A stretch of 15,764 nucleotides of DNA, from positions 1-15,764 of the forward strand of contig JARKSN010000110.1 of the NCBI GenBank assembly GCA_029974275.1. Reading direction: 5' to 3'. The position numbers and the translations under genes were made by a program. This document shows, in pieces, positions 4,173-15,764 of the stretch. The stretch's first letter is position 1, and each line of letters starts with the position of its first letter. The stretch is from Candidatus Hydrogenedentota bacterium. GTDB lineage: Bacteria; Hydrogenedentota; Hydrogenedentia; Hydrogenedentales; SLHB01. The notes beneath the pieces are model-generated. The model searched no databases and was not told where the DNA came from. It saw only the letters and a list, made by a program, of their open reading frames with translations.

Positions 4173-7027
4173 GGCGCGGCCTTTACGGGCGCCTGCACCT
4201 CCAAGCGCGGCTCTCCGGAAATCCGCACGACCTGACTGTGGACGGGATCGACCTTCCGCCGCAAAAAGTCGCCGGGGCGCAGGTAGTATACGTGCAACAG
4301 AAAATCGCCGCGCGGCGCGTTCTCAATGGAGAAGGTTCCATCGCTTCCCACGACGCCGTACCCTTGGATGTTGGCGGCCGCCGAAGACGCCGCCCCTTGC
4401 GCATACCAGAGCATGGGATTGGCGAGGTTCAATCCTTGGGCTCCGTCTTCCGAAGGAATCATCAACAGCGCGACGCCCTGCACGCCGTTGCCCGGCGGCG
4501 GAGCGCAACGGCCCGCGATCAGCGTTCCCGTTTCGTGCGGCGCATCGTCTTCCTGGCCAAAATTTTGGGTGGTCGTTTGGCCTTCTCGTATGCGCACGCG
4601 GGCATGCATCGGACGGAACGCGCCGCCCGAAATGTCGTCGAGAAGCATCGCGGAAGCCAGATACTCGCCCACGGGAACGTTGCGGATGACGTACTGCCCG
4701 TTTTGGTCCGCGCTGGCCATTTCGCGGACGCTGTTTCCGGCAAGCACGATCACCGCCCCTTCCCGAATCTTCCCGTCGACGGCGACATATCCTTGCAGCG
4801 TTCCGCCTTGACCCAAGACGATGGCGACATCCGGCGCCCGTTGACCCGCCGCGACGGCGATAGGTCCCGCAGACCCCATGGCATACCCGTTCATCCGCGC
4901 CTCCAAGCGATACGATCCCTCTGCGAGACGCTCAAACGCGAACTCGCCGGCGGCGCCGCTCTCCGTTTGCTTGCCGGAAAAGGAATCCGAAGCCGCCTCC
5001 ACGATCCCCATGTACGACAACCCTGCGCGGCCGATGCGGACATTGGCCCCGGGCATCGCGCGTCCGTCCACCGAGACCACCCTGCCTCGGATGACGCCGC
5101 CACTTTGGCTCACGGGTATTTCGATGCCGGATGCGTCACGTCCGGGAACGAGCGAAACCTGCGCGCTTCCCGGCGCGTACTGCGACGCCGATGCCTCTAG
5201 CGCGTATTCTCCAGGGCTCAAGCGCAACGTGAAGCGTCCGTCGGCGTCGGTGTGCGCGACGTCGCGCGTCATCGAGGCAATGGCGAAGAAATCGGCGGAT
5301 TGTTCCAGCGGAATCGCGCGAACGTCCGCGCCGGGCACAGCATCCCCCGTTTCCCGAACCACCACGCGTCCGCTGACTTCGACATGCGCATCCAGCACGA
5401 TGTCGGTTGGCGCGTCCAACTGCACCGCATCCACGGTCTTGCCGGCGTAGCCGTCGCGCGAAACGCGGAGAAACAGACTGCCTTCCTCGATGCCGTCGAA
5501 CGAATAAAAACCTTGGGCATTGGTCGTCGCCCGCAACTCGTTCACGCTGACGGAGAAGCCCGATACGAGCGTGAGCGACACGTCGACCGCGGCAATCGGA
5601 CGGCCGAACGAATCGGAGATCGTGCCGAAAACCGTGTGCTCGCCTGACGCGATGGGAGTCAACCAAACTTCCACGCCGCGAATGTCCCGGACGCCGTCCG
5701 GACGCACAGGCTCTCCCATCAGCGCGAATTTGAACCCTTCCTTCCGCGCCAGGATTTGATATTCGCCGGACGGAAGTCCCGTCAAGACAAATTCCCCCCG
5801 CTCATCCGATCGAGCGGAGCGAATGGCTTTGGGGCTTGCCATGGGGGTCGTAAACTGGGAATAGGCGGGCAGACATGCCACGTCCGCTCCCGGCGCTACG
5901 CCGCCCCGCGTCGAAACCACCCGCCCGCTGATTGTCGTGCCAAGGCTAAGGAACACGTCCACGCGGGCCGTGCGCGCCCCATCGGTCAGGAGGAACGGAC
6001 GGCTCAACTGCGGCGCCAGCGCATCGGGCATCGCCTGGACCCGCCACTCTTTGTTCAACGGCGCGCCGATCAACTCATAGTAGCCATTCTCGTCCGAACG
6101 GCTCGATAGCGGCGGGGTGCGCTGCGCCGCAACATGAATCGCCTGCGTCAGAATGCTCTCCGACGTGCACAACAGCACATCGGAGCCCGCGACAGGCATC
6201 TTGTCCGGCCCGTATATGTATCCCCACACCGTCCCTGCGGGACGGACCACGAAATCCACATCCGTGATTTCCGCATCGGGAACCGGCACGACGATGCGCT
6301 GTGCGGGGATGCCGCCGAAAGCCAGATAGCGGCTCTGCGAAAGATCGAGCAGCACATCGTGATCGCCCGGAGCGATGCCGGAAAGAACGTAGCGTCCGTC
6401 CGACCCCGTGCGAACAGGCGACGAATGGCCGCCCGTCTTCTGACGCACCGCCACGGGCACATCGGCCGCCGGACGTCCCGTTTCCGCCTCGGTGACCCGG
6501 CCCGACACCGTTGCCCCGCGCGACAGCTCCACGTCCACAGATACCCGCCGCTGTCCCGCCGCGAACGCAATCTTTTGCGGGGCGCTATCCAGGAATCCCG
6601 CCGCACTGGCCTCGATAACATAATCAAAACCCGCCGCCGCCGTTACTTCGAAACGGCCATCCTCCCCGCTCCGTGCGCCATACGACAACGGATCGGCCCT
6701 CTCCCCGGACGCCTCCGCGCGCGCCGTCACCTTGGCATGCGGCACAGGGTTCCCCGTACGCATTTCCGTAACCCTTCCCGAAAAAAACACGCGCTCGCCC
6801 TCGGCCGGGAACGAGGCGTCATGGCCCAAATCCGCATCGACCCGGCCTCGATCGACATCGAACACGCTCGATCCTCGGTCGGAGACGTGACGCCCCTCGG
6901 GAAGCGCGGCATACGAAACCTCCGAAGTCGGGGCAGGCGGCGGCTTTCGGGGCGCGAACAAGGCCACAGCGCCCACGACAAGGGCTATCCCTACCCAGAG
7001 GAGGAGGATGATTCTGGGAGTGCTCAT
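4169..7027 (-). CDS. Membrane-anchored/exported protein of tandem carboxypeptidase-regulatory-like (CarboxypepD_reg) domains, ~952 aa
   Basis: N-terminal hydrophobic helix (IILLLWVGIALVVGAVALF), then repeated units SGRV....G.PV.GA.V ... T(D/G).(D/E)G.(F/Y).(L/F)....G.Y.L.A...G(F/Y). ATG at 7027 preferred over GTG at 7054; exact start uncertain. Confidence 0.85.
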   Translation of the reverse strand: MSTPRIILLLWVGIALVVGAVALFAPRKPPPAPTSEVSYAALPEGRHVSDRGSSVFDVDRGRVDADLGHDASFPAEGERVFFSGRVTEMRTGNPVPHAKVTARAEASGERADPLSYGARSGEDGRFEVTAAAGFDYVIEASAAGFLDSAPQKIAFAAGQRRVSVDVELSRGATVSGRVTEAETGRPAADVPVAVRQKTGGHSSPVRTGSDGRYVLSGIAPGDHDVLLDLSQSRYLAFGGIPAQRIVVPVPDAEITDVDFVVRPAGTVWGYIYGPDKMPVAGSDVLLCTSESILTQAIHVAAQRTPPLSSRSDENGYYELIGAPLNKEWRVQAMPDALAPQLSRPFLLTDGARTARVDVFLSLGTTISGRVVSTRGGVAPGADVACLPAYSQFTTPMASPKAIRSARSDERGEFVLTGLPSGEYQILARKEGFKFALMGEPVRPDGVRDIRGVEVWLTPIASGEHTVFGTISDSFGRPIAAVDVSLTLVSGFSVSVNELRATTNAQGFYSFDGIEEGSLFLRVSRDGYAGKTVDAVQLDAPTDIVLDAHVEVSGRVVVRETGDAVPGADVRAIPLEQSADFFAIASMTRDVAHTDADGRFTLRLSPGEYALEASASQYAPGSAQVSLVPGRDASGIEIPVSQSGGVIRGRVVSVDGRAMPGANVRIGRAGLSYMGIVEAASDSFSGKQTESGAAGEFAFERLAEGSYRLEARMNGYAMGSAGPIAVAAGQRAPDVAIVLGQGGTLQGYVAVDGKIREGAVIVLAGNSVREMASADQNGQYVIRNVPVGEYLASAMLLDDISGGAFRPMHARVRIREGQTTTQNFGQEDDAPHETGTLIAGRCAPPPGNGVQGVALLMIPSEDGAQGLNLANPMLWYAQGAASSAAANIQGYGVVGSDGTFSIENAPRGDFLLHVYYLRPGDFLRRKVDPVHSQVVRISGEPRLEVQAPVKAAP

Positions 7028-7917: not shown

Positions 7918-7947
7918 ATCAGGAAACAAGAATCAGGAAACAAGAAT
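7918..7947 (+). repeat. Perfect 14-bp tandem direct repeat ATCAGGAAACAAGA x2
   Basis: Copies at 7918-7931 and 7932-7945 followed by AT; directly upstream of the tRNA -35 box. Confidence 0.9.
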
Positions 7948-7991: not shown

Positions 7992-8069
7992 CGGGGTGTA
8001 GCGCAGCCCGGTTAGCGCGCTTCGTTCGGGACGAAGAGGCCGGTGGTTCAAATCCACTCACCCCGACCA
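7992..8069 (+). tRNA. tRNA-Pro (anticodon CGG)
   Basis: Acceptor CGGGGTG/CACCCCG, D stem GCGC/GCGC, anticodon arm CTTCG-TTCGGGA-CGAAG, T arm GGTGG-TTCAAAT-CCACT, discriminator A and encoded CCA; 78 nt. Confidence 0.97.
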
Positions 8070-8377
8070 TTTTTAGAAATGAGCCCTTTGGCGAACGCGT
8101 CAAAGGGCTTTCTCATTGTGGGGGGTTAGGGTTGCGCCGTCGAGGGTAAAGTTCAAACTGATGATATCCAAGATATGGCGCTTTGCGTCCCGTTCGGCTG
8201 TACCCCATTTCTTTTGAAGCGATTGTGAACGTTCAAACGCTTTGATCGCCATGTCGCCATACTCTGCATGTCGTCGGTCGTTAACGTCGCTCAGCAGCTT
8301 TAACCGCTCAATTCTGTGTTGCAGCTGTGCGTTCTTGACCTTGAAGGCGAGCGCTCAATCTCATCGGTCAAGCGAAT
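8048..8377 (-). pseudogene. 3' remnant of a large serine recombinase (integrase) with two frameshifts, ending inside tRNA-Pro (antisense)
   Basis: Minus strand: IRLTDEIE / shift ~8350 / AFKVKNAQLQHRIERLKLLSDVNDRRHAEYGDMAIKAFERSQSLQKKWGTAERDAKRHILDIISLNFTLDGATLTP / extra base in the 6-G run 8120-8125 / TMRKPFDAFAKGLISKNGRGEWI*, stop at 8048-8050. From memory this resembles C-termini of tRNA-targeting recombinase-family proteins (..KR.IL.I..LN..LD..TL....RKPFD..A.GL). Catalytic N-terminus absent. Confidence 0.75.
8082..8113 (+). terminator. Stem-loop downstream of tRNA-Pro (probable intrinsic terminator)
   Basis: AGCCCTTTG (8082-8090) and CAAAGGGCT (8101-8109) form a perfect 9-bp inverted repeat followed by TTCTCATT; the U-tract is weak. 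Confidence 0.5.
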
Positions 8378-8426
8378 CTTGTAATGTCGTTGACTGCTCT
8401 CAAGCGTATGGTCTTAGCGGTGAATA

Positions 8427-8457
8427 GATTGCTTCGCTGCGCTGCGCTCGCAATGAC
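8427..8457. repeat. REP-like palindromic element GATTGCTTCGCTGCGCTGCGCTCGCAATGAC
   Basis: Imperfect hairpin (ATTGC...GCAAT) matching the widespread intergenic GATTGCTTCG...CTCGCAATGAC repeat family, recognised from memory; single copy here. Confidence 0.65.
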
Positions 8458-8472
8458 GGCAGGGCAATTCTT

Positions 8473-8555
8473 CTCTGCGAACTCAGCGTTCTCTGCGCCT
8501 CTGCGTTGAGCTCTTCCTTTGTGAACCTCTGTGTCCTTTGTGCCTTTGTGGTGAA
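8473..8555. repeat. Two adjacent quartets of heptamer repeats (CTCWGCG x4; CTYTGTG x4)
   Basis: CTCTGCG 8473, CTCAGCG 8482, CTCTGCG 8491, CTCTGCG 8499; CTTTGTG 8517, CTCTGTG 8527, CTTTGTG 8536, CTTTGTG 8544. Confidence 0.85.
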
Positions 8556-8588
8556 TCCTAAATCCCTCTTAAGAAAGGAAAACACATC

Positions 8589-8786
8589 ATGCTCCCCACC
8601 ACCCCAACGCCCCCTAAACAGAACGTGACGAACTACTCGATCCTATTGTATGGCGCGAGCAAGTGCGGCAAGACCAGCACCGCATCGCAGGCCGACGGCG
8701 CGTTGTTTCTCGCGACCGAGCCCGGCCTGAACACGCTCGAAGTGTATCAATATCTCGGCACGAATTGGGCAGGTCGCTCTAGATAA
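8589..8786 (+). pseudogene. Truncated phage-type AAA_24 / Sak4-like NTP-binding protein (N-terminal ~55 aa only)
   Basis: SD AAAGGA; MLPTTPTPPK...SILLYGASKCGKTS (Walker A) and ALFLATEPGLNTLEVYQ, typical of AAA_24 N-termini. Stops at 65 aa with no Walker B, far shorter than a full domain. Confidence 0.75.
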
Positions 8787-8822
8787 ACAGCGAACTGGTC
8801 TACCGTTCAGGCATAAGCTCCG

Positions 8823-9152
8823 TCAGTCGATCACCACATGTTCAATCCAGGGGCACTCTTTCTGGAGACGCCCAAATACCTTCAACATAATCTCCACGTC
8901 CTCGGGAAATTTTTTCCGGGCTGCCGATACCCCATAGAACTCGATCAAAACAGGATCGGGGCTGAACCCCCAGGCCACGTCCCAGATCGCGTCCCAGTTC
9001 TCACCACAGTCACCGGGCAAACCCAGCTTTCTCTTGAGCAACCCGAAGATGTCAAAACGTGACTTCCACTCTTTCAGGTCAATCCTGATAGGATTCTCCG
9101 TGATCGGTGTGTACGGCATCATCTCGCCGCTAGGCCCTTTTCCCTCAGCCAT
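8823..9152 (-). CDS. Barstar family RNase inhibitor, copy 2 (109 aa)
   Basis: IRIDLKEWKSRFDIFGLLKRKLGLPGDCGENWDAIWD matches barstar L..L.LP..YGENLDALWD. ATG at 9152 with SD GAGGGG; same length as copy 1. Confidence 0.9.
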   Translation of the reverse strand: MAEGKGPSGEMMPYTPITENPIRIDLKEWKSRFDIFGLLKRKLGLPGDCGENWDAIWDVAWGFSPDPVLIEFYGVSAARKKFPEDVEIMLKVFGRLQKECPWIEHVVID

Positions 9153-9172
9153 TGTGCATTTCCCCTCTTCAG

Positions 9173-9244
9173 TTATAGTCCGACTTCCGTGAATGTCAGG
9201 TAATGGCTGTCCATGAAGAGCAACAAACCGGCGATCGGAAACAG
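9173..9244 (-). pseudogene. Diverged orphan copy of the RNase toxin's last 23 codons
   Basis: Reads LFPIAGLLLFMDSHYLTFTEVGL* and aligns without gaps to the toxin end LFSNDGLIFFTDDHYLTFTEIGL* (9605-9676), including the TAA stop. Confidence 0.9.
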
Positions 9245-9250
9245 GCACCT

Positions 9251-9580
9251 TCAATCGATCACAACATACTCAATGTGAGGCCAGCCTCTGTGAAGATCAT
9301 GAAATATCTCCAGCATAATATCCACATCCTCGGGGAATCGTTCCCGGGCTGTAGATACGCCATGAAGTTCGATGGTAACGGGCACATCCGTGAACCCTTT
9401 AGCTAGGTCCCAGATCGCGTCCCAGTTCTCACCGCAGAAATCGGGCAATCCCAACTTCCTCTTGAGCAACCCGAAGATGTCAAAAAGCGACTTCCATTCT
9501 TTCAGGTCGATCCGGATGGGATTCTCCGTGATGGGCCTGTACGCCTTCTCTTCTTCGGTCAGTTCTCTTTTCTTAGGCAT
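9251..9580 (-). CDS. Barstar family RNase inhibitor, copy 1 (109 aa), presumed cognate immunity protein
   Basis: LKRKLGLPDFCGENWDAIWD barstar motif; SD AAGGAG 6 nt before ATG 9580 (alternative ATG 9583); 24 nt downstream of the toxin stop. Confidence 0.92.
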   Translation of the reverse strand: MPKKRELTEEEKAYRPITENPIRIDLKEWKSLFDIFGLLKRKLGLPDFCGENWDAIWDLAKGFTDVPVTIELHGVSTARERFPEDVDIMLEIFHDLHRGWPHIEYVVID

Positions 9581-9604
9581 CATGAACTCCTTCAAACGGA
9601 CCGC

Positions 9605-10243
9605 TTATAGTCCGATTTCTGTAAAGGTCAGGTAATGGTCATCCGTGAAGAAGATCAATCCATCATTTGAAAACAGAATCCTCTTCGCGTTTCGGTAACC
9701 ACCGGCATAATCGACATCCGCCTCATACCATACCCGTCCGGGCGCATCAGGCAGTTTACCTTTCCTATTCTCAAAGACATCTCCGCCAATCATACGCCCC
9801 GGCAGAACCTCAGCCAGATTCCCCTCTTTCCGTATCCAGCCCAATCGCTCGGCCTCTTCCGACGAGATGTAGTACTCAGGGAGTTCGCCATAAACCAGCA
9901 GCCAGTAGTCCGCGCCCTCTTCGCCTCTATCGGTGGCATACCCCGCCTGAATAAACGACAACGTTTCGAGAGTACACCTGCAATTCGGGTGCAATGGCGG
10001 CCCATCCGCCGGGGCGCTGTCCATCGCGTATATTTTACCATGACGCTCCCGGCACGCGGCGCATGCGCGAGAATCCGTTGCGGCGCACCACTCCTTCCAG
10101 CGTGCGCTTTTTCGGCCGGCGCTGTCCGTTTCGTTGCTGCGCCAACAGCCCAGAACGATTCGTATCGCTCTTCGCAGGCGAATGCGATGGTTCTTCGCAA
10201 CCGCATCGATTCGACCGCTTTCCTTTGTTTGTGACATTTGCAT
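9605..10243 (-). CDS. MuF (phage Mu gpF/SPP1 gp7-like) C-terminal motif fused to a barnase-family ribonuclease (212 aa)
   Basis: WCAATDSRACAACRERHGKIY...PPLHPNCRC (~9974-10099) is the MuF signature. The C-terminal ~105 aa (LPEYYIS..EA..LGW....GNLAEVLPGRMIGGDVFENRKGKLP...GRVWYEADVDYAGGYRNAKRILFSNDGLIFFTDDHYLTF) are colinear with barnase. SD AAAGGA 8 nt before ATG; no signal peptide. Confidence 0.92.
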   Translation of the reverse strand: MQMSQTKESGRIDAVAKNHRIRLRRAIRIVLGCWRSNETDSAGRKSARWKEWCAATDSRACAACRERHGKIYAMDSAPADGPPLHPNCRCTLETLSFIQAGYATDRGEEGADYWLLVYGELPEYYISSEEAERLGWIRKEGNLAEVLPGRMIGGDVFENRKGKLPDAPGRVWYEADVDYAGGYRNAKRILFSNDGLIFFTDDHYLTFTEIGL

Positions 10244-10431
10244 CCGTCTTGTCCTTTACGGTTCATACATGTCTTTAGCCCTTTTCCTCTCTGAAAGAAA
10301 CAGCGATAGCGCCCACTATATACATGGCCCCGCTTGTTGCACTGCGAAGCCGGCATATTGCGATCGTCACACCGAAATGAGCCTCCGCGCCAAGGCGTGA
10401 GATACAACGATGGAAACAGGGGATGTCTGCA

Positions 10432-10812
10432 ATGAGAAAATTTTCGCGTTACGTGCGCGCGCAATTGCGAGGTATTTCCACGTTCGACTTGAGGTCGCCA
10501 AGCGTGCGCAAGAACATGGCGTGAACGACACCTGCGAATGATGGAATACGTGCAAATCGCATCGCTTTTCGGATTATGTTTGCCGGAGAAGGCCCGTATG
10601 CCCAAATGCTTGCGAATATGGAGTATCTGGCAAACGATCACGAGCGAATTGCCGCGTTGTATTCTTTTGTGGTCGGCGAGAATCTTGGTTGGCTATATCG
10701 CTGGGCGCGTCTGCCGGTTGCTGACAAAAACGTAGAAAGAGCGATGAGCGGCTTGAATGCGGATGCGCCTCTCATTGATTCAGGAAATGATGGTGCGCCT
10801 GACCTAGCGTGA
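10432..10812 (+). pseudogene. Possible hypothetical gene interrupted by one in-frame TGA
   Basis: ATG 10432 (SD-like AGGGG upstream) MRKFSRYVRAQLRGIS... is in frame with track ORF 10576..10812, broken only by TGA at 10522-10524. No family recognised. Confidence 0.3.
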
Positions 10813-10935
10813 TCGTCCGGAGAAGGGCATCTTTCGCTCGCCGCTGCTGCAGATGTCCGCTGCCGGAACGCGCAAGAAACCCTGGCGAAAATGCTCTCGC
10901 AAGACTGACCCGTAGCCCTAAAAAGTTAAACCGCT

Positions 10936-13395
10936 CTACTTCGATCGCACCGTTATGGCCGCCGTCGATCGCGCGCCCTCCCCCGGCGCGACGTAAACGA
11001 ACATGCTGTCGCCCACGCAGCGGGCGGTCCATTCCGCTTGGGGGGCGTCGATCTCAAACGACGTCTGGCTCTTCTTGAATGGACCAAAACGCAACGAGGC
11101 GATGGGCAAGGGAGCGTCCGCCTCGACTTCCAGCCGGTAGCCGTTGTCAAGGCGCGTGTAGCGCATGCGCACGTGCGCGCTGGCTCCATCCGGCAACGCC
11201 ACGCGCCAGCGCTCGACGCCAAGGGACTCCCAACCGTCGGGAAGCCGGGGGAGGATGCGCAGGCCGCGCTCAGGCCGCAGGTCGTCGATGCCGATGAGCA
11301 GACGGATGCTCTTGACGATTTCCGCTTGGTGAACCGCATTGCCGAGGTCGCCGTCGCGGAACCAGAAGCGTCCCGACGGATGCGCGATCACCCCTTCCGG
11401 CACGAGGTAGTTGTGATCGGCGTGATGATAGCAGAACGCCGCGGCTTCCTCGACGATGGCGCGCGCGTCGACGAGTTGATCCAACAGGATGGCGGTTTGG
11501 GCCAGATATCCTTGGCCATAGCCCATCTCGCGGCCGGAGGCCGGGGTGAAGTAGTCTTCTTTTTGCGCGGCGTACGTGTTGCGGGCCAGTTCGTAAACGT
11601 CCGGGGCATCCACTGCCGGGTCAAGCGTCTCGCAATCGGCCAATGCGAACAAGGGCGCGAAACGTTTGTATTCATAGGTCCAGCAGTCCTCGTTGATATC
11701 GGTAAAAATACGGCCGTGCCGGGGCTGATCGATCACGAACGTATTCATCAAGCCCTGCCATAACGCGTCGGCGCGGCTGCGCCATCGGGCAGCGTCATCC
11801 GTATGTCCCAGCGTCGATGCCAGACGCTCAAAGGCGCGCAGGGCATACGCGGCATAGGTGTTGGAGAACAGATCAAATCCGCCAAAACCTTGGTAAGACG
11901 CCTCTGAGCGCGAGCAGAGCACGCCGTCGAAGCCGGACTCGGCGGGATGGTCCATTTGCCAAACGAACCAATCGGCAGCGTCCTGGAACGCCTTCCAGTT
12001 TTTTTGGACGAAATCCCGGCTCACATGGCCTTTTTGCGCCAGCGCCGCCAGCCCAAGCATGATTGCCCCGTGGCCGTCGTTTTCCTTGGTGATCCCCGCG
12101 CTGGAATCGCCGATCTCCGACGCGTTCATGACGCGCTTCCAGCTTGGGCGGTCGTACTTCGAATTGGCGTCATAGAGAAAATGCAACAGTCGCGCCGCCA
12201 TGCGCGCGGACGTGTCGGCATAGCCCGCGTGAATGGTTTCGGTGAAGACCCGGCCCGTATCCCGGGCGCAGATGAGGGCGTGGTAAGTGCCAACTCCTTC
12301 GCGAAACGTTCCAAACCCGAAGGTGTGGCCGAAACTCGGCGCGCCCCGGGTCGACGTGCGCGGCGTGCCGTCCGGATCCGGCTTGGCGACCGCCATGTCC
12401 TGCACGTTGTGGGCGTACACATTGCCCAGTATGGCCGCATACGGCGAAGCCTCGAAGCGGACGAGAGGTCCCGCGTAGGCTGCGGGGGCGTTTGGGGCGA
12501 CGCGTGCGGGCAACTCGTCACGGAACTGGTACAGCCGGCGTGCGAGACGATCCAAGGCGGGGTAGTACCCCTGCCGCAGAAAATAGAGCTGGTCGTAGAT
12601 GGGGACCGGCAGCGTCTCCTGGGCGTCTGGAGGCGCCGTCACGCCGGTGGCGGCGCTAACCACATAGTGCGCCCGGCGAAAATCCTCATAGCGAATCCAG
12701 ATGCTTTGAATCCGTTTTGGGCGCGGACGAACGCCGAACACATAGCGGAAAGGTTTGGGGCCGTCTGTTTCGCTCACGATCAACGCATCGTCGAGCAGGC
12801 GTCTGGCCGCGGGGTCGGATTCAAACGGCTCGCGGTAGGGGCTGCGAATCTTGTTCAGGCGCTCCTCGCCCGCCTGCAGCGGCGTGAACATCTCGTAGGG
12901 CCACACGTTCACCCCAAAAATGACGGGAAACGTGTCCAACGTGACGTCCGGGTCGTCATAGAAAATCAGGATGCTGCCGATCCGGTCGCCGAGGTATACG
13001 CGGCGGCCATGATCGTGGTAGCGTTCCCAACGGCCCCACCCCTCGTTGCCCTCAGGGCGATCCGTGGTCATGCCCAGAAAGTATACGGCATCGAACTGTC
13101 GGCCAACCGGGATCGGGGCGTACTGGCCTGTCACCATGTTGCGATACCCGTCGCCGTCTTTCACCGGCGAAAAGGGAATGCCAAAGCACTCCACGGTCGC
13201 GCCGGCGTCCGCCTCGACGCCAATCGGATGAAAGCGTTTTGTGATCATCTCTCCCCCTTTGGGCTCAAGCCCCTCTGCCGCCGCAGAGGGATTCCCCGCA
13301 AGGCCAACCATGCCAATCCCCAGCGCCGTCACAAGCCCTAAGGCGCGCACCGCCATCGCTACGCAGCGCACCCCAAAACCGTCTATCGCCTCCAT
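10936..13395 (-). CDS. Secreted protein with a probable six-hairpin (alpha/alpha)6 glycosidase-like domain (~819 aa)
   Basis: Start 13395 after SD GGAGGA (track start 13557 runs through AT-rich intergenic DNA); signal-peptide-like ...RALGLVTALGIGMVGLAGNPSAAA. Motifs ARDTGR, ENDGHG, NTYAAYALRAFERLASTLG....AARWRSRADALWQGL and C-terminal LRILPRLPDGW are typical of (alpha/alpha)6 GH enzymes. Confidence 0.75.
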   Translation of the reverse strand: MEAIDGFGVRCVAMAVRALGLVTALGIGMVGLAGNPSAAAEGLEPKGGEMITKRFHPIGVEADAGATVECFGIPFSPVKDGDGYRNMVTGQYAPIPVGRQFDAVYFLGMTTDRPEGNEGWGRWERYHDHGRRVYLGDRIGSILIFYDDPDVTLDTFPVIFGVNVWPYEMFTPLQAGEERLNKIRSPYREPFESDPAARRLLDDALIVSETDGPKPFRYVFGVRPRPKRIQSIWIRYEDFRRAHYVVSAATGVTAPPDAQETLPVPIYDQLYFLRQGYYPALDRLARRLYQFRDELPARVAPNAPAAYAGPLVRFEASPYAAILGNVYAHNVQDMAVAKPDPDGTPRTSTRGAPSFGHTFGFGTFREGVGTYHALICARDTGRVFTETIHAGYADTSARMAARLLHFLYDANSKYDRPSWKRVMNASEIGDSSAGITKENDGHGAIMLGLAALAQKGHVSRDFVQKNWKAFQDAADWFVWQMDHPAESGFDGVLCSRSEASYQGFGGFDLFSNTYAAYALRAFERLASTLGHTDDAARWRSRADALWQGLMNTFVIDQPRHGRIFTDINEDCWTYEYKRFAPLFALADCETLDPAVDAPDVYELARNTYAAQKEDYFTPASGREMGYGQGYLAQTAILLDQLVDARAIVEEAAAFCYHHADHNYLVPEGVIAHPSGRFWFRDGDLGNAVHQAEIVKSIRLLIGIDDLRPERGLRILPRLPDGWESLGVERWRVALPDGASAHVRMRYTRLDNGYRLEVEADAPLPIASLRFGPFKKSQTSFEIDAPQAEWTARCVGDSMFVYVAPGEGARSTAAITVRSK

Positions 13396-13551
13396 CGCTT
13401 CCTCCAGCGCCCGCGCACCTGAATCCCATCCCAGTACTGTCATTTTTCGAAAAAAATAGACAATCAAATGTTGTTTTATGTGCATATTTTGAATAATATA
13501 TACACGTATTGATTGGTAATAACAAGTCATAATCAAGAGGATGGAATCCCT
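13396..13551. promoter_or_regulatory. AT-rich divergent promoter region between two glycosidase-like genes
   Basis: Strongly AT-rich 13440-13540. Contains TTTTTCGAAAAA palindrome (13443-13454), CAATCAA (13461-13467), TTGATTG (13509-13515) and AATCAA (13531-13536). Confidence 0.6.
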
Positions 13552-15764
13552 ATGCACTCGCGAAGCGTCTGTTTTTTCTTGATGGGTCTCGGCCTATCCT
13601 TGACCGCACAGGGAGCCGAGGGCGGCTCCTGGGTGGCGCCCTACATGGGGCGGCAAACCATGTTCATCGACGGCAAACCGGAAGCGCCGCTTATCTATCT
13701 TTTGTCGGGACCTTCGGCTTCCGAACCCTGGCGGCCAGAGGCGCAAGAAACGATGGGCGCTTTCGCCGAGGAAGGGTATCGCCTGTTCGGCGTCCTGGCA
13801 TGGTTGCAGAACATATGGAAACCGGACGGACTGGACGTCGACCACGTGAAGCGTCAGATTCGCGCCGTCCAGCAGGCGCGCCCAGACGCCCGCATTCTGC
13901 TGCGCATTGCCTTATGGGCTCCGGAGTGGTGGATGGATCAGCATCCGGAGGAACGAATTGGCTGGACCCTGCGGGCAGGCACGCACATTCCCGAGGCCGT
14001 GCGCCAAAATCCGGATGACTGGAAAATGCCTAGCTATGCCTCGACGGTCTGGCGACAAGAAGCAGGGGAACAGCTTCGAAAGCTGCTGCAAGAGCTTGCC
14101 GCCTCTCCCGAGGGTGACGCGGTGTTCGGGCTGCTGGTGACGGGCGGCCAATGGATCGAGTGGTTCTATCCGAAATTCGAGTTCGAGCCGGATAACGGCC
14201 CCGCCATGACGCGTCATTTCCGGCAATGGCTGCGCGCGAAGTACGCAACGGACGACGCCTTGCGGATCGCCTGGAACAAACCCGACGTCACCTTCGACAC
14301 CGCCGAGGTGCCGGGCGTGCCGGAGCGCTTCAAGACGTCCGAACGGATGTTTCGCGATCCCCAAAAGGAGCGGCAGGCCATCGACTACTACAAATGTCAC
14401 CAGGAACTGGTGGCGGACCTTCCCATCGAGTTTTGCCGTATCGCGAAAGAGGCGTGGCCGCGTCCCGTGATAGTAGGCACGTACCATGGCTACCTGCTGC
14501 ACATTACCCATCAGGCTTCCGGCGGTCATTTGGAAATGCAACGCCTGTTCGAGTCGCCCTATATCGACTTCCTGTCGTCGCCGTTCAGTTACGAGTTCGA
14601 TTCGCGGTTCCTGGGCGGCTCCGGTCATTACCGGTGCCTATGGGAAAGTCTGCGCATGCACGGCAAGCTCTGGCTCAACGAGAACGACCACCCCACGCAT
14701 GTCGGCGACATTTTTGGCCGTCCCGGCCCGTTTTGGCCGACAACGGTCGAGGGGGACATTGCCGCGATGCGCCGGAACACGGCGCATTGCTACACGCTCG
14801 GGCAAGGCATGTGGTGGTTTGATTTCGGCCCCGGGGGTTCCAAGGGTCGCGGCCGGTGGTGGGCGCATCCCGCATTGAAGGAGGAGACGGGCAGGCTCTT
14901 GAAATTGTCCGAGGGCTTGTTGAATAAACCGCACGAAAACTCCGCCGATGTCTTGTTCGTCTATGATACCGAATGCTTCTACTACCTGGCGCCGCACTAC
15001 CTGCCCCTATACAACCAGGACAGCCATTGGGACCGCACCGAGACGCTGTCGCTGGAGGCATTGAACGAAACCGTGGCGGGCGCCTACAAGAGCGGCGTGG
15101 CCTTCGACCTGATCCATCTCAACGACCTTGGCGCCGCCGACCTGTCTCGATACAAAACGGTGGTGTTTGGATTCACGCCCTACCTCAGCGAAGCCCACCG
15201 CGCTCTGATTCGCGAAAAGGTGGTCACGCCGGGCCGCACGGTGGTGTGGGTGTATGCGCCGGGCTACGTGGACGGTGAACGGCTAAGCGTCGAACGCGTG
15301 GCGGATACGGTGGGGATGGCGATCACAAAATCGACGGTCAACTTGCCGCCGCAATTGCTCTTGCGGGAAGGAAGCATTACGCCGAACTTCCCGGAGACGC
15401 GCATCAACGCGCGGGTCCAGGATGCGTGGACCGCTCCGACCTTCCAAGTGACGGACCCCGAAGCGAAAGCGTTGGGCTACTACGGCGGTTCGGTCGAAGT
15501 GGCGTTGGCGCGCAAAGAAGTCAACGGAGCCGCCGTGTGGTATTCGGCGCTGCCGTTGAAGCATCCTCCGTTGATGCGAGAGATTTTCCGGGAGTCGGGG
15601 GCGCACATCTACAACGAAAAAAACGACGTGGTCAGTGCGGGCGGCGGGGTGCTGTGGATTCACACCGAGACCGGCGGCAAGCGCACCCTGACCTTGCACA
15701 ACGGCAAAAAAGTGAAAATCAACCTCGCCCCGTGGTCCACCGTGATACTCGATAGCGACACGGG
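13552..15764 (+). CDS. Secreted GH42-like (beta-galactosidase-like, clan GH-A) glycoside hydrolase, 3'-partial (at least 737 aa)
   Basis: Frame from ATG 13552 appears open to the window edge: signal peptide MHSRSVCFFLMGLGLSLTAQG, MFIDGKP, APEWWMDQHPEE, SYASTVWRQ, GGQWIEWFY, FRQWLRAKY.TDDALRIAWN, GKLWLNEND, then trimerisation-like region GVAFDLIHLNDL...DLSRYKTVVF. Absent from the ORF track (no stop in window). Confidence 0.88.
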   Translation, partial: MHSRSVCFFLMGLGLSLTAQGAEGGSWVAPYMGRQTMFIDGKPEAPLIYLLSGPSASEPWRPEAQETMGAFAEEGYRLFGVLAWLQNIWKPDGLDVDHVKRQIRAVQQARPDARILLRIALWAPEWWMDQHPEERIGWTLRAGTHIPEAVRQNPDDWKMPSYASTVWRQEAGEQLRKLLQELAASPEGDAVFGLLVTGGQWIEWFYPKFEFEPDNGPAMTRHFRQWLRAKYATDDALRIAWNKPDVTFDTAEVPGVPERFKTSERMFRDPQKERQAIDYYKCHQELVADLPIEFCRIAKEAWPRPVIVGTYHGYLLHITHQASGGHLEMQRLFESPYIDFLSSPFSYEFDSRFLGGSGHYRCLWESLRMHGKLWLNENDHPTHVGDIFGRPGPFWPTTVEGDIAAMRRNTAHCYTLGQGMWWFDFGPGGSKGRGRWWAHPALKEETGRLLKLSEGLLNKPHENSADVLFVYDTECFYYLAPHYLPLYNQDSHWDRTETLSLEALNETVAGAYKSGVAFDLIHLNDLGAADLSRYKTVVFGFTPYLSEAHRALIREKVVTPGRTVVWVYAPGYVDGERLSVERVADTVGMAITKSTVNLPPQLLLREGSITPNFPETRINARVQDAWTAPTFQVTDPEAKALGYYGGSVEVALARKEVNGAAVWYSALPLKHPPLMREIFRESGAHIYNEKNDVVSAGGGVLWIHTETGGKRTLTLHNGKKVKINLAPWSTVILDSDT

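Follow-up and report, generated by a model that had tools for sequence, protein, structure and literature searches.

A Short MuF-Core Barnase with Tandem Barstars beside a tRNA-Pro Gene in a Hydrogenedentota Genome

Architecture of the Cassette

A contig of 15,764 bases from a Candidatus Hydrogenedentota genome (4.38 Mb in 342 contigs) carries on its minus strand, between positions 8823 and 10243, a compact cassette of one toxin-like gene and two barstar genes; the entire contig is the window referred to throughout. The toxin gene (9605-10243) encodes a 212-residue protein in which a fragment of the phage head protein MuF precedes a barnase-type RNase domain. An in-frame stop codon four codons above its ATG closes the frame, and AAGGA, 8 nt ahead of the ATG, serves as the Shine-Dalgarno (SD) sequence. 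Pfam matches Phage_Mu_F to residues 32-92 (42.6 bits, cut-off 29.6) over only positions 51-111 of the 112 in the profile, and NCBIfam places phageSPP1_gp7 (the SPP1 gp7 domain) on residues 51-92. On PHROG head-protein profiles the MuF match falls at about positions 250-300 of 500-700, and the protein therefore lacks about 200 residues found at the start of a typical MuF. The barnase domain is complete, with Ribonuclease (PF00545) matched by residues 121-210 (54.6 bits, cut-off 24) and residues 111-210 aligned with barnase residues 11-109 (E 2e-35). An earlier interpretation made from the DNA letters, called here the sequence-only reading, had described a protein with its own SD, a basic N-terminus, no signal peptide, only the C-terminal Cys/His part of MuF, and a whole barnase domain, and this description holds throughout.

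Three segments make up the protein. Residues 1-44 (10112-10243) form a basic N-terminal extension (10 Lys plus Arg against 4 Asp plus Glu) that is poorly conserved, is modeled at a predicted local distance difference test score (pLDDT) of 44-70, and is missing from the 168-residue forms of the family. This end of the protein has no hydrophobic core, the highest 15-residue Kyte-Doolittle mean within the first 60 residues being 0.39. The MuF core follows (residues 45-100, 9944-10111; placed by Pfam, NCBIfam, and alignment), and the barnase domain, placed by Pfam, alignment, and fold, takes up residues 101-212 and the stop codon (9605-9943). The AlphaFold model of the toxin (pLDDT 86.4, predicted template modeling score 0.77) is confident over residues 45-212. 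Its barnase part, with a pLDDT above 90, superposes on barnase with a Z score of 16.8 and a root-mean-square deviation (rmsd) of 1.5 Å over 106 residues at 51% identity. Glu73, His102, Arg83, and Arg87 have catalytic roles in barnase, and their counterparts in the toxin are E174, H203, R184, and R188. With an offset of +101, barnase residues D54, F56, N58, R59, E73, R83, R87, H102, and Y103 are all retained. The toxin is best read as a putative cytoplasmic RNase of the barnase type. The MuF core superposes on models of phage minor-capsid (MuF) proteins over 45-51 columns with an rmsd of 1.1-2.2 Å and a probability of 1.0. Modeled alone (pLDDT 73), it matched no solved structure, the best VIA comparison reaching a Z score of 2.6 and Foldseek hits having E above 5. 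A complex prediction for the core with two copies of an HK97-type portal from its own genome scored 0.00 in a run without controls and is evidence neither way.

Two barstar genes lie downstream of the toxin gene. Barstar A (110 residues from ATG 9583; 9251-9583) starts about 20 nt past the toxin stop codon, is preceded by the SD sequence AAGGAG, scores 55.6 bits against Pfam Barstar (PF01337, cut-off 23.4), and aligns with residues 9-78 of Bacillus amyloliquefaciens barstar (E 3e-9). Barstar B (109 residues from ATG 9152; 8823-9152) has an SD-like GAGGGG and scores 51.1 bits. The frames scored were the open reading frames (ORFs) 9251-9595 and 8823-9254. That both barstars are intact had been recognized in the sequence-only reading, but their likely starts are the two ATGs and not the TTGs upstream; the N-terminal extension of the 143-residue barstar ORF overlaps a barnase stump in another frame. 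Asp35 and Asp39 are residues of the acidic contact helix of barstar, and the contact segment G-E-N-x-D-A-x-W-D is retained in both barstar A and barstar B. The two proteins share 71% identity and represent two types. Barstar B is 85-87% identical to type B copies in related loci, in which types A and B occur in differing orders and also as mosaics.

The stump between the two barstar genes (9173-9250, minus strand), recognized from a direct repeat and its translation, consists of the last 25 codons and the stop codon of a second barnase gene; translated, it matches the tail of the toxin, including the active-site His-Tyr. A 72-nt direct repeat (9173-9244 versus 9605-9676, 75% alike) and a 300-nt repeat (8804-9103 versus 9232-9531, 76% alike) together mean that a unit of about 430 bp, made up of the toxin 3' end and a barstar, occurs twice. 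From the diverged second barstar and the barnase stump it therefore follows that toxin-immunity units were duplicated or swapped at this site. Homology to classical barstar and the adjacency of the genes throughout the family suggest that barstars A and B would bind and inhibit the adjacent RNase.

A Family of Short MuF-Core Proteins

The toxin belongs to a large family of short proteins and is not a truncation peculiar to this genome. Homologues at E ≤ 1e-3 number 419 and measure 116-371 residues; the best 120 of them are 120-279 residues long, typically share 50-58% identity over residues 45-212, and in many cases have both Pfam domains. C61, C64, H85, C88, and C90 are invariant in an alignment of 34 homologues. 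The N-terminus of these proteins varies or is missing altogether, and the shortest among them begin at the core. A metagenome scan yielded at least 556 confirmed relatives, and the ESM Atlas has 13 clusters with PF00545 and PF04233, the largest of 1113 members, mostly Bacillota. Long fused forms of 372-2000 residues did not appear at E ≤ 1e-3, which is weak evidence, and we therefore do not claim that full-length MuF-barnase proteins are absent. Among GenBank phages, none of 50,697 records covers 80% of the toxin, and 82 match residues 36-128 only, in genuine head proteins. No plasmid record out of 72,556 reaches the same coverage; 56 match the barnase part only.

A profile of the MuF core alone, run against 1.84 billion representatives, gave 4054 matches at E ≤ 1e-3. 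The best 150 of these are proteins of 54-218 residues, bar one ordinary MuF of 366 residues. Among the 149 closest core representatives, 76 have barnase, 45 end too early to be judged, and 28 gave no clear picture (most of them look frameshifted); barnase is thus the C-terminal domain in 76 of the 104 long enough to judge.

Gene order was examined at 92 loci, namely the window, 7 genome loci, 4 viral loci, and 80 metagenome loci. An upstream stop codon closes the toxin frame in 89 of them. Intact toxins mostly have 141-267 residues, the commonest length being 168, and six copies are broken. A barstar lies directly downstream of the toxin in 81 loci and two or three barstars are present in 11; of the 11 loci without a barstar, 7 end within 107 bases of the toxin. 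In four loci (L029, L033, L060, and L074) a MuF-core barnase is followed by 0.8-8 kb of DNA with no barstar at E ≤ 1e-5, and these may have a different or very divergent inhibitor.

Departures from the barnase architecture were also seen. Four short proteins (P0135, P0147, P0205, and P0269) have an acidic tail after the MuF core in place of barnase and may be deletions that took out the RNase. At one locus (L051:6937-7748, with the same arrangement implied in L054), the gene for another short MuF-core protein separates the MuF-barnase gene from tRNA-Gly(CCC). This ORF of 218 residues (178 in a near-identical database form) has another, unnamed C-terminal domain and is followed by an ORF of 71 residues. 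The same domain occurs alone (about 141 residues), on short MuF-core proteins of 184 and 223 residues, on a protein of 288 residues whose MuF domain is full, and on VG15 (PF25310) of phages.

Selection, Decay, and Expression

Ratios of nonsynonymous to synonymous substitution (dN/dS), calculated from the window and two related loci (L002 and L003), lie at 0.14-0.21 in barnase and 0.17-0.33 in the MuF core; residues 1-44 have values of 0.56-1.05. Purifying selection acts on the MuF core, which therefore has a function in these short proteins. The basic N-terminus is probably vestigial, and that of L003 still aligns to MuF profile positions 25-50. This same copy (L003, 9992-10639) has lost the catalytic His of barnase, and in another (L004, 10001-10634), with three barstars after it, a frameshift interrupts the MuF core. 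Turnover and decay of this kind would be expected if the cassette is selfish. One RNA library contains a 184-nt contig that matches part of the toxin gene exactly, a weak hint of transcription. Two RNA runs (X17 and X18) each gave one exact contig of low depth for which carried-over DNA is a possible source; contigs of a third run (X19) are only 90-95% alike and therefore come from relatives.

Genomic Setting and Signs of Mobility

The cassette occupies a low-GC island (8070-10935) between a tRNA-Pro gene and a gene for an 873-residue protein. The GC fraction in 500-base windows is 0.51-0.56 across 8001-11000 versus 0.58-0.67 in most other windows. ARAGORN places tRNA-Pro (anticodon CGG) on the plus strand at 7992-8069, its 3' end toward the island. 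Right after it, at 8075-8117 on the same strand, a strong terminator-like hairpin was found by folding the 60-nt stretch 8066-8125 (-27.1 kcal/mol, z -4.4, 0 of 200 shuffles as stable, stem within about 8075-8113). A 14-nt exact tandem duplication (7918-7945) is present some 45 nt upstream of the tRNA.

Between the tRNA and the cassette, Pfam and PHROG identify the 5' fragment of a Sak4-like (AAA_24) phage recombination gene (8589-8786, plus strand). Its 65 residues include the Walker A motif and match positions 2-41 of 195 in AAA_24 and 26-80 of 382 in phrog_124 Sak4-like (E 7e-12), and they are 73% identical over 60 residues to the start of a full-length gene on another contig (C51) of this genome. 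The fragment ends where the cassette starts. The junction is not an assembly artifact, since an exact 388-nt contig (8528-8915) from another study's DNA run crosses it. The stop-to-stop ORFs of 8070-8560 and 10244-10935 have no Pfam or PHROG match. Pseudogene remains of the MuF N-terminus, a portal, or the rest of sak4 were considered for these two intervals and set aside for want of a Pfam or PHROG match.

Pfam and PHROG profile scans found no capsid, portal, or terminase family anywhere in the 15.8-kb contig, and the rest of the genome has no further match to MuF (PF04233), barnase, or barstar. The absence of head genes and the stand-alone position of the cassette were thus noted correctly in the sequence-only reading, whereas the freedom from phage context that it implied does not survive the Sak4-like fragment and tRNA-Pro adjoining the cassette. 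Elsewhere in the genome, two HK97-type portal genes and two full Sak4-like genes lie on short contigs (C43, C161, C51, and C206), and therefore phage or prophage DNA in this bin is poorly assembled.

Distribution and flanks suggest that the cassette is mobile. It is found in 3 of 135 genomes of the phylum (3 of the 86 of good quality), one of which has two copies. The nearest cassette-bearing relatives are labeled Hydrogenedentota/Hydrogenedentales, and DNA similarity among the Hydrogenedentota loci ends at the cassette borders, corresponding to 8791/8817 and 10256 in the window. Clustering of the loci at 80% identity gave 50 clusters, 32 with enough upstream DNA. In 8 of these 32, a co-oriented tRNA (Gly, Pro, Ser, Trp, Tyr, or Asn) lies within 700 bases upstream, a situation that by rough estimate about 1% of random genes would share. 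In five further clusters, one of them that of the window, a tRNA or tmRNA lies no more than 2.5 kb downstream, always with its 3' end toward the cassette. Of 54 usable loci, 6 (L072, L032, L027, L106, L075, and L102) have the cassette flanked on both sides by exact direct repeats of 21-72 bp, with no integrase between the repeats. The repeat in L072 (968-1050 and 2048-2130), about 83 bp with one mismatch, starts at the 3' end of a tRNA-Asn and includes the terminator. In L032 the copies are at 182-252 and 1849-1919. In L106 they are at 6985 and 8255, and the first begins at or just after a tRNA 3' end, with the tRNA terminator included. In the window itself, no stretch of at least 12 nt from the tRNA 3' end recurs. 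The only attachment-site candidate (8076-8100 versus 10374-10398) was rejected, since 18 matching positions out of 25 and an exact core of 10 nt are estimated to be at chance level. Comparison with an empty site was attempted with genome G018, the only one with a clear orthologue of the 873-residue gene (70% identity), and was abandoned as the region is not syntenic and has no tRNA nearby on its contig.

Neighboring genes were called with a simple greedy ORF caller and scanned with Pfam, then with PHROGs for the Pfam-negative ORFs. None of the 7 genome loci (7 kb on each side) and 1 of the 14 metagenome loci (5.5 kb on each side) have head or tail genes close by, which leaves the cassette outside head modules in 20 of the 21 non-viral loci examined. 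The homologues are thus short proteins that mostly stand apart from head operons and not long MuF proteins within them, an outcome that favors the sequence-only reading. The sole exception (L041) is the same phage as the viral contig L025 and as L065. In this phage a 200-residue member and its barstar sit on the opposite strand between siphovirus tail genes and the tape measure gene, and its terminase-portal-protease/capsid block has no MuF gene. Among the other neighbors are housekeeping genes for EF-P, PBP5, a sigma-54 activator, RNase J, ribosomal protein L9, and DnaX, as well as mobile or restriction genes: a type III Res subunit, a C5 methylase, a serine recombinase, an IS3 transposase, and reverse transcriptases. 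Two of the reverse-transcriptase genes (L008:1128-2813, fused to a trypsin-like peptidase domain, and L094:9974-11503) recall defense islands.

Proposed Origin and Persistence

These observations are probably best accounted for by a mobile, phage-derived toxin-immunity cassette that outlived a decayed element or prophage at tRNA-Pro. The cassette would be the last intact part of an element inserted 3' of the tRNA. In its toxin, the Cys/His core of MuF, some 55 residues, would replace the secretion signal of classical barnase. By homology, barstar would be produced together with the toxin and plug the RNase active site one-to-one, and the producer would therefore go unharmed; both the toxicity of the RNase and this block are extrapolated from the barnase-barstar literature. 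The cassette could persist selfishly if losing barstar while retaining the RNase is harmful to a cell, and surplus barstars remaining from cassette turnover might neutralize related incoming RNases. The MuF core would be the handle by which these RNases meet phage heads or phage DNA. Such a head- or DNA-targeting role is our leading guess, made by analogy with polymorphic-toxin logic as set out in the accessible text of two studies (PMC3482391, PMC5576092). Of the three hypotheses offered in the sequence-only reading (a host-domesticated anti-phage or abortive system, a toxin that hitchhikes in helper-phage capsids, and an addiction module that stabilizes the island), the self-stabilizing island module fits the prophage-remnant context best.

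Several points weigh against this proposal. Nothing shows that barstar is less stable than the toxin, as addiction needs, and classical barstar is stable. With the toxin encoded ahead of its immunity gene and no DNA-binding domain on barstar, the arrangement suits polymorphic toxins better than type II toxin-antitoxin systems. Addiction alone does not explain the purifying selection on the MuF core. The neighbors across loci are mostly plain housekeeping genes, and a role that benefits the host is possible. The window lacks an integrase or a convincing attachment-site repeat, and a promoter scan found nothing relevant on the minus strand. Finally, barnase K27 is Ser128 in the toxin, at a column that is variable across the 34-homologue alignment, and this substitution may lower the activity of the enzyme.

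Alternative Explanations

Delivery by phage capsids fares best among the alternatives, although we consider it unlikely. Here the MuF core would be a minimal head-targeting tag, and the RNase would be packed into the heads of resident or helper phages, injected with the DNA, and left to degrade RNA in cells without the matching barstar, lysogens being immune. The N-terminal domain of a polymorphic toxin sets its route, and the accessible text of PMC3482391 and PMC5576092 reads MuF as the phage-head route. The core is the best-conserved part of MuF, superposes on phage MuF models, and is kept by purifying selection, yet the N-terminal 200 or so residues of MuF are missing. Phages do carry the cassette (L024, L025, L041, and L065), but in the siphovirus the gene lies on the strand opposite to the late genes, and its place in nearly all non-viral loci is outside head modules. 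The two phage portal genes of the genome count in favor, but both they and the portal of the L025-type phage are of the HK97 type; no SPP1-type portal was found in either, and the genome has no other PF04233 match. The second short MuF-core protein of L051, whose other C-terminal domain is also found on a full MuF protein and on VG15, likewise counts in favor. A bolder form of this idea, to which we give a small chance, is that the MuF Cys/His core of about 55 residues is by itself a sufficient portable tag, by which a small chromosomal or moron-encoded RNase enters the heads of phages that do not encode it and is injected with their DNA, or a bait that reports head assembly. If so, short MuF-core proteins with barnase or with at least one other C-terminal domain would be a distinct class of head-hitchhiking effectors, independent of the head gene module.

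Anti-phage abortive infection is improbable. The MuF core would sense a head or portal protein, or barstar would be titrated or degraded on infection, and the freed RNase would kill the cell. A toxin that appears cytoplasmic and carries a phage-derived domain suits this scheme, as do four loci (L061, L069, L094, and L008) among restriction, methylase, or reverse-transcriptase genes, but the neighbors are housekeeping genes in most cases and the cassette is itself phage-borne. Barnase-barstar binding is among the tightest known, with no evident release mechanism. PADLOC-DB 2.0 returned no family for the toxin or either barstar at E ≤ 1e-3. As for a domesticated anti-phage system, no evidence supports it, and the sporadic, mobile-looking spread within the phylum speaks against it.

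An inert leftover, that is, the truncated and inactive MuF-barnase gene of a dead prophage, is very improbable: the prophage-remnant context, the replaced Lys27, sister copies that are broken or without the catalytic His, and the almost neutral evolution of the N-terminal 44 residues would suit it, but an SD precedes an unbroken frame, residues 45-212 have a dN/dS of 0.14-0.33, and the same short architecture recurs in hundreds of proteins that start just before the core.

Relation to Known Systems

The closest comparison is with MuF toxins, polymorphic toxins of temperate phages. In Zhang et al. 2012 (PMC3482391), a table names MuF as one trafficking mode for Tox-Barnase with Imm-Barstar. Jamet et al. 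2017 (PMC5576092) recognize MuF toxins by a C-terminal extension of at least 100 residues with a toxin domain and a small downstream ORF. Barnase is absent from the main text of the latter paper and PF00545 from its toxin list, one supplementary file being unreadable. Like the MuF toxins portrayed in the accessible parts of these two papers, the present protein has a partly MuF-type N-terminal part, a C-terminal toxin of more than 100 residues, and an immunity gene directly downstream. Unlike them, it retains only the last 60 or so of 112 Pfam MuF positions in a protein of 212 residues, with structural likeness confined to about 48 residues, and it has no head module with portal or terminase genes beside it. 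Residence in a head module is, in the available text of PMC12226406, a defining feature of MuF toxins. That class has variable toxin domains on one conserved N-terminal part; on the short MuF-core proteins the domain is mostly barnase, and one other C-terminal domain was seen. Literature searches, as far as the sources were accessible, returned no description of a short, head-independent MuF-barnase family, the row in the Zhang 2012 table being the sole MuF-barnase link. The suggestion of the sequence-only reading that the system may be undescribed is therefore only partly right: the pairing of MuF with barnase is in that table, and databases hold more than 1000 members.

Compared with barnase-barstar of B. 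amyloliquefaciens (PDB 1a2p, 1brs, and others), the cassette shows 51-52% identity and the same fold over 106 residues, with the catalytic Glu, Arg, Arg, and His and the barstar contact segment retained. Classical barnase is exported by a signal peptide. The toxin has a MuF core instead of a signal peptide, and two diverged barstars accompany it in place of one. Orphan toxin-tip/immunity modules exist in CDI (contact-dependent inhibition) and Rhs loci and likewise have immunity-gene arrays with stumps of displaced toxin 3' ends, but here the toxin gene starts independently with an SD of its own, there is no long main toxin gene ahead of it, and in nearly all cases the toxin domain is barnase. 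A general model of such orphan modules is given in the accessible text of PMC3482391. With prophage morons and type II toxin-antitoxin systems the cassette shares its form as a small two-gene unit, its opposite-strand position in a phage structural operon, and its survival in a decayed element. The antitoxin of type II systems is labile, has a DNA-binding domain, and is usually encoded first. The toxin-first order of the cassette and its barstars, which have no other Pfam domain and no DNA-binding domain, set it apart from the type II systems.

MuF toxins are thought to travel inside phage heads. A MuF core of about 55 residues, kept under selection on hundreds of small RNases outside head operons, is a minimal and tractable construct for asking which part of MuF does the targeting. 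It joins a textbook enzyme and its inhibitor to one unknown domain, and thereby lets one ask what the core binds (portal, DNA, or zinc) and whether toxins ride in the capsids of phages that do not encode them. There is also a consequence for annotation: a very common cassette of gut Firmicutes annotated as a phage head morphogenesis protein is a barnase-barstar toxin-immunity pair.

Remaining Genes of the Contig

Other genes on the contig are those for an oxidoreductase, two ABC ATPases, a 961-residue CarboxypepD_reg repeat protein, a GntR regulator, an 873-residue glycosidase-like protein (10936-13557, minus strand), and a protein of 750 residues without a family. The ORF for the last of these (13513-15762, plus strand) is open-ended and matches no Pfam or PHROG family. 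At their starts, this ORF and the divergent glycosidase-like gene overlap by 45 bases, and one of the two has therefore probably been predicted too long at its start.

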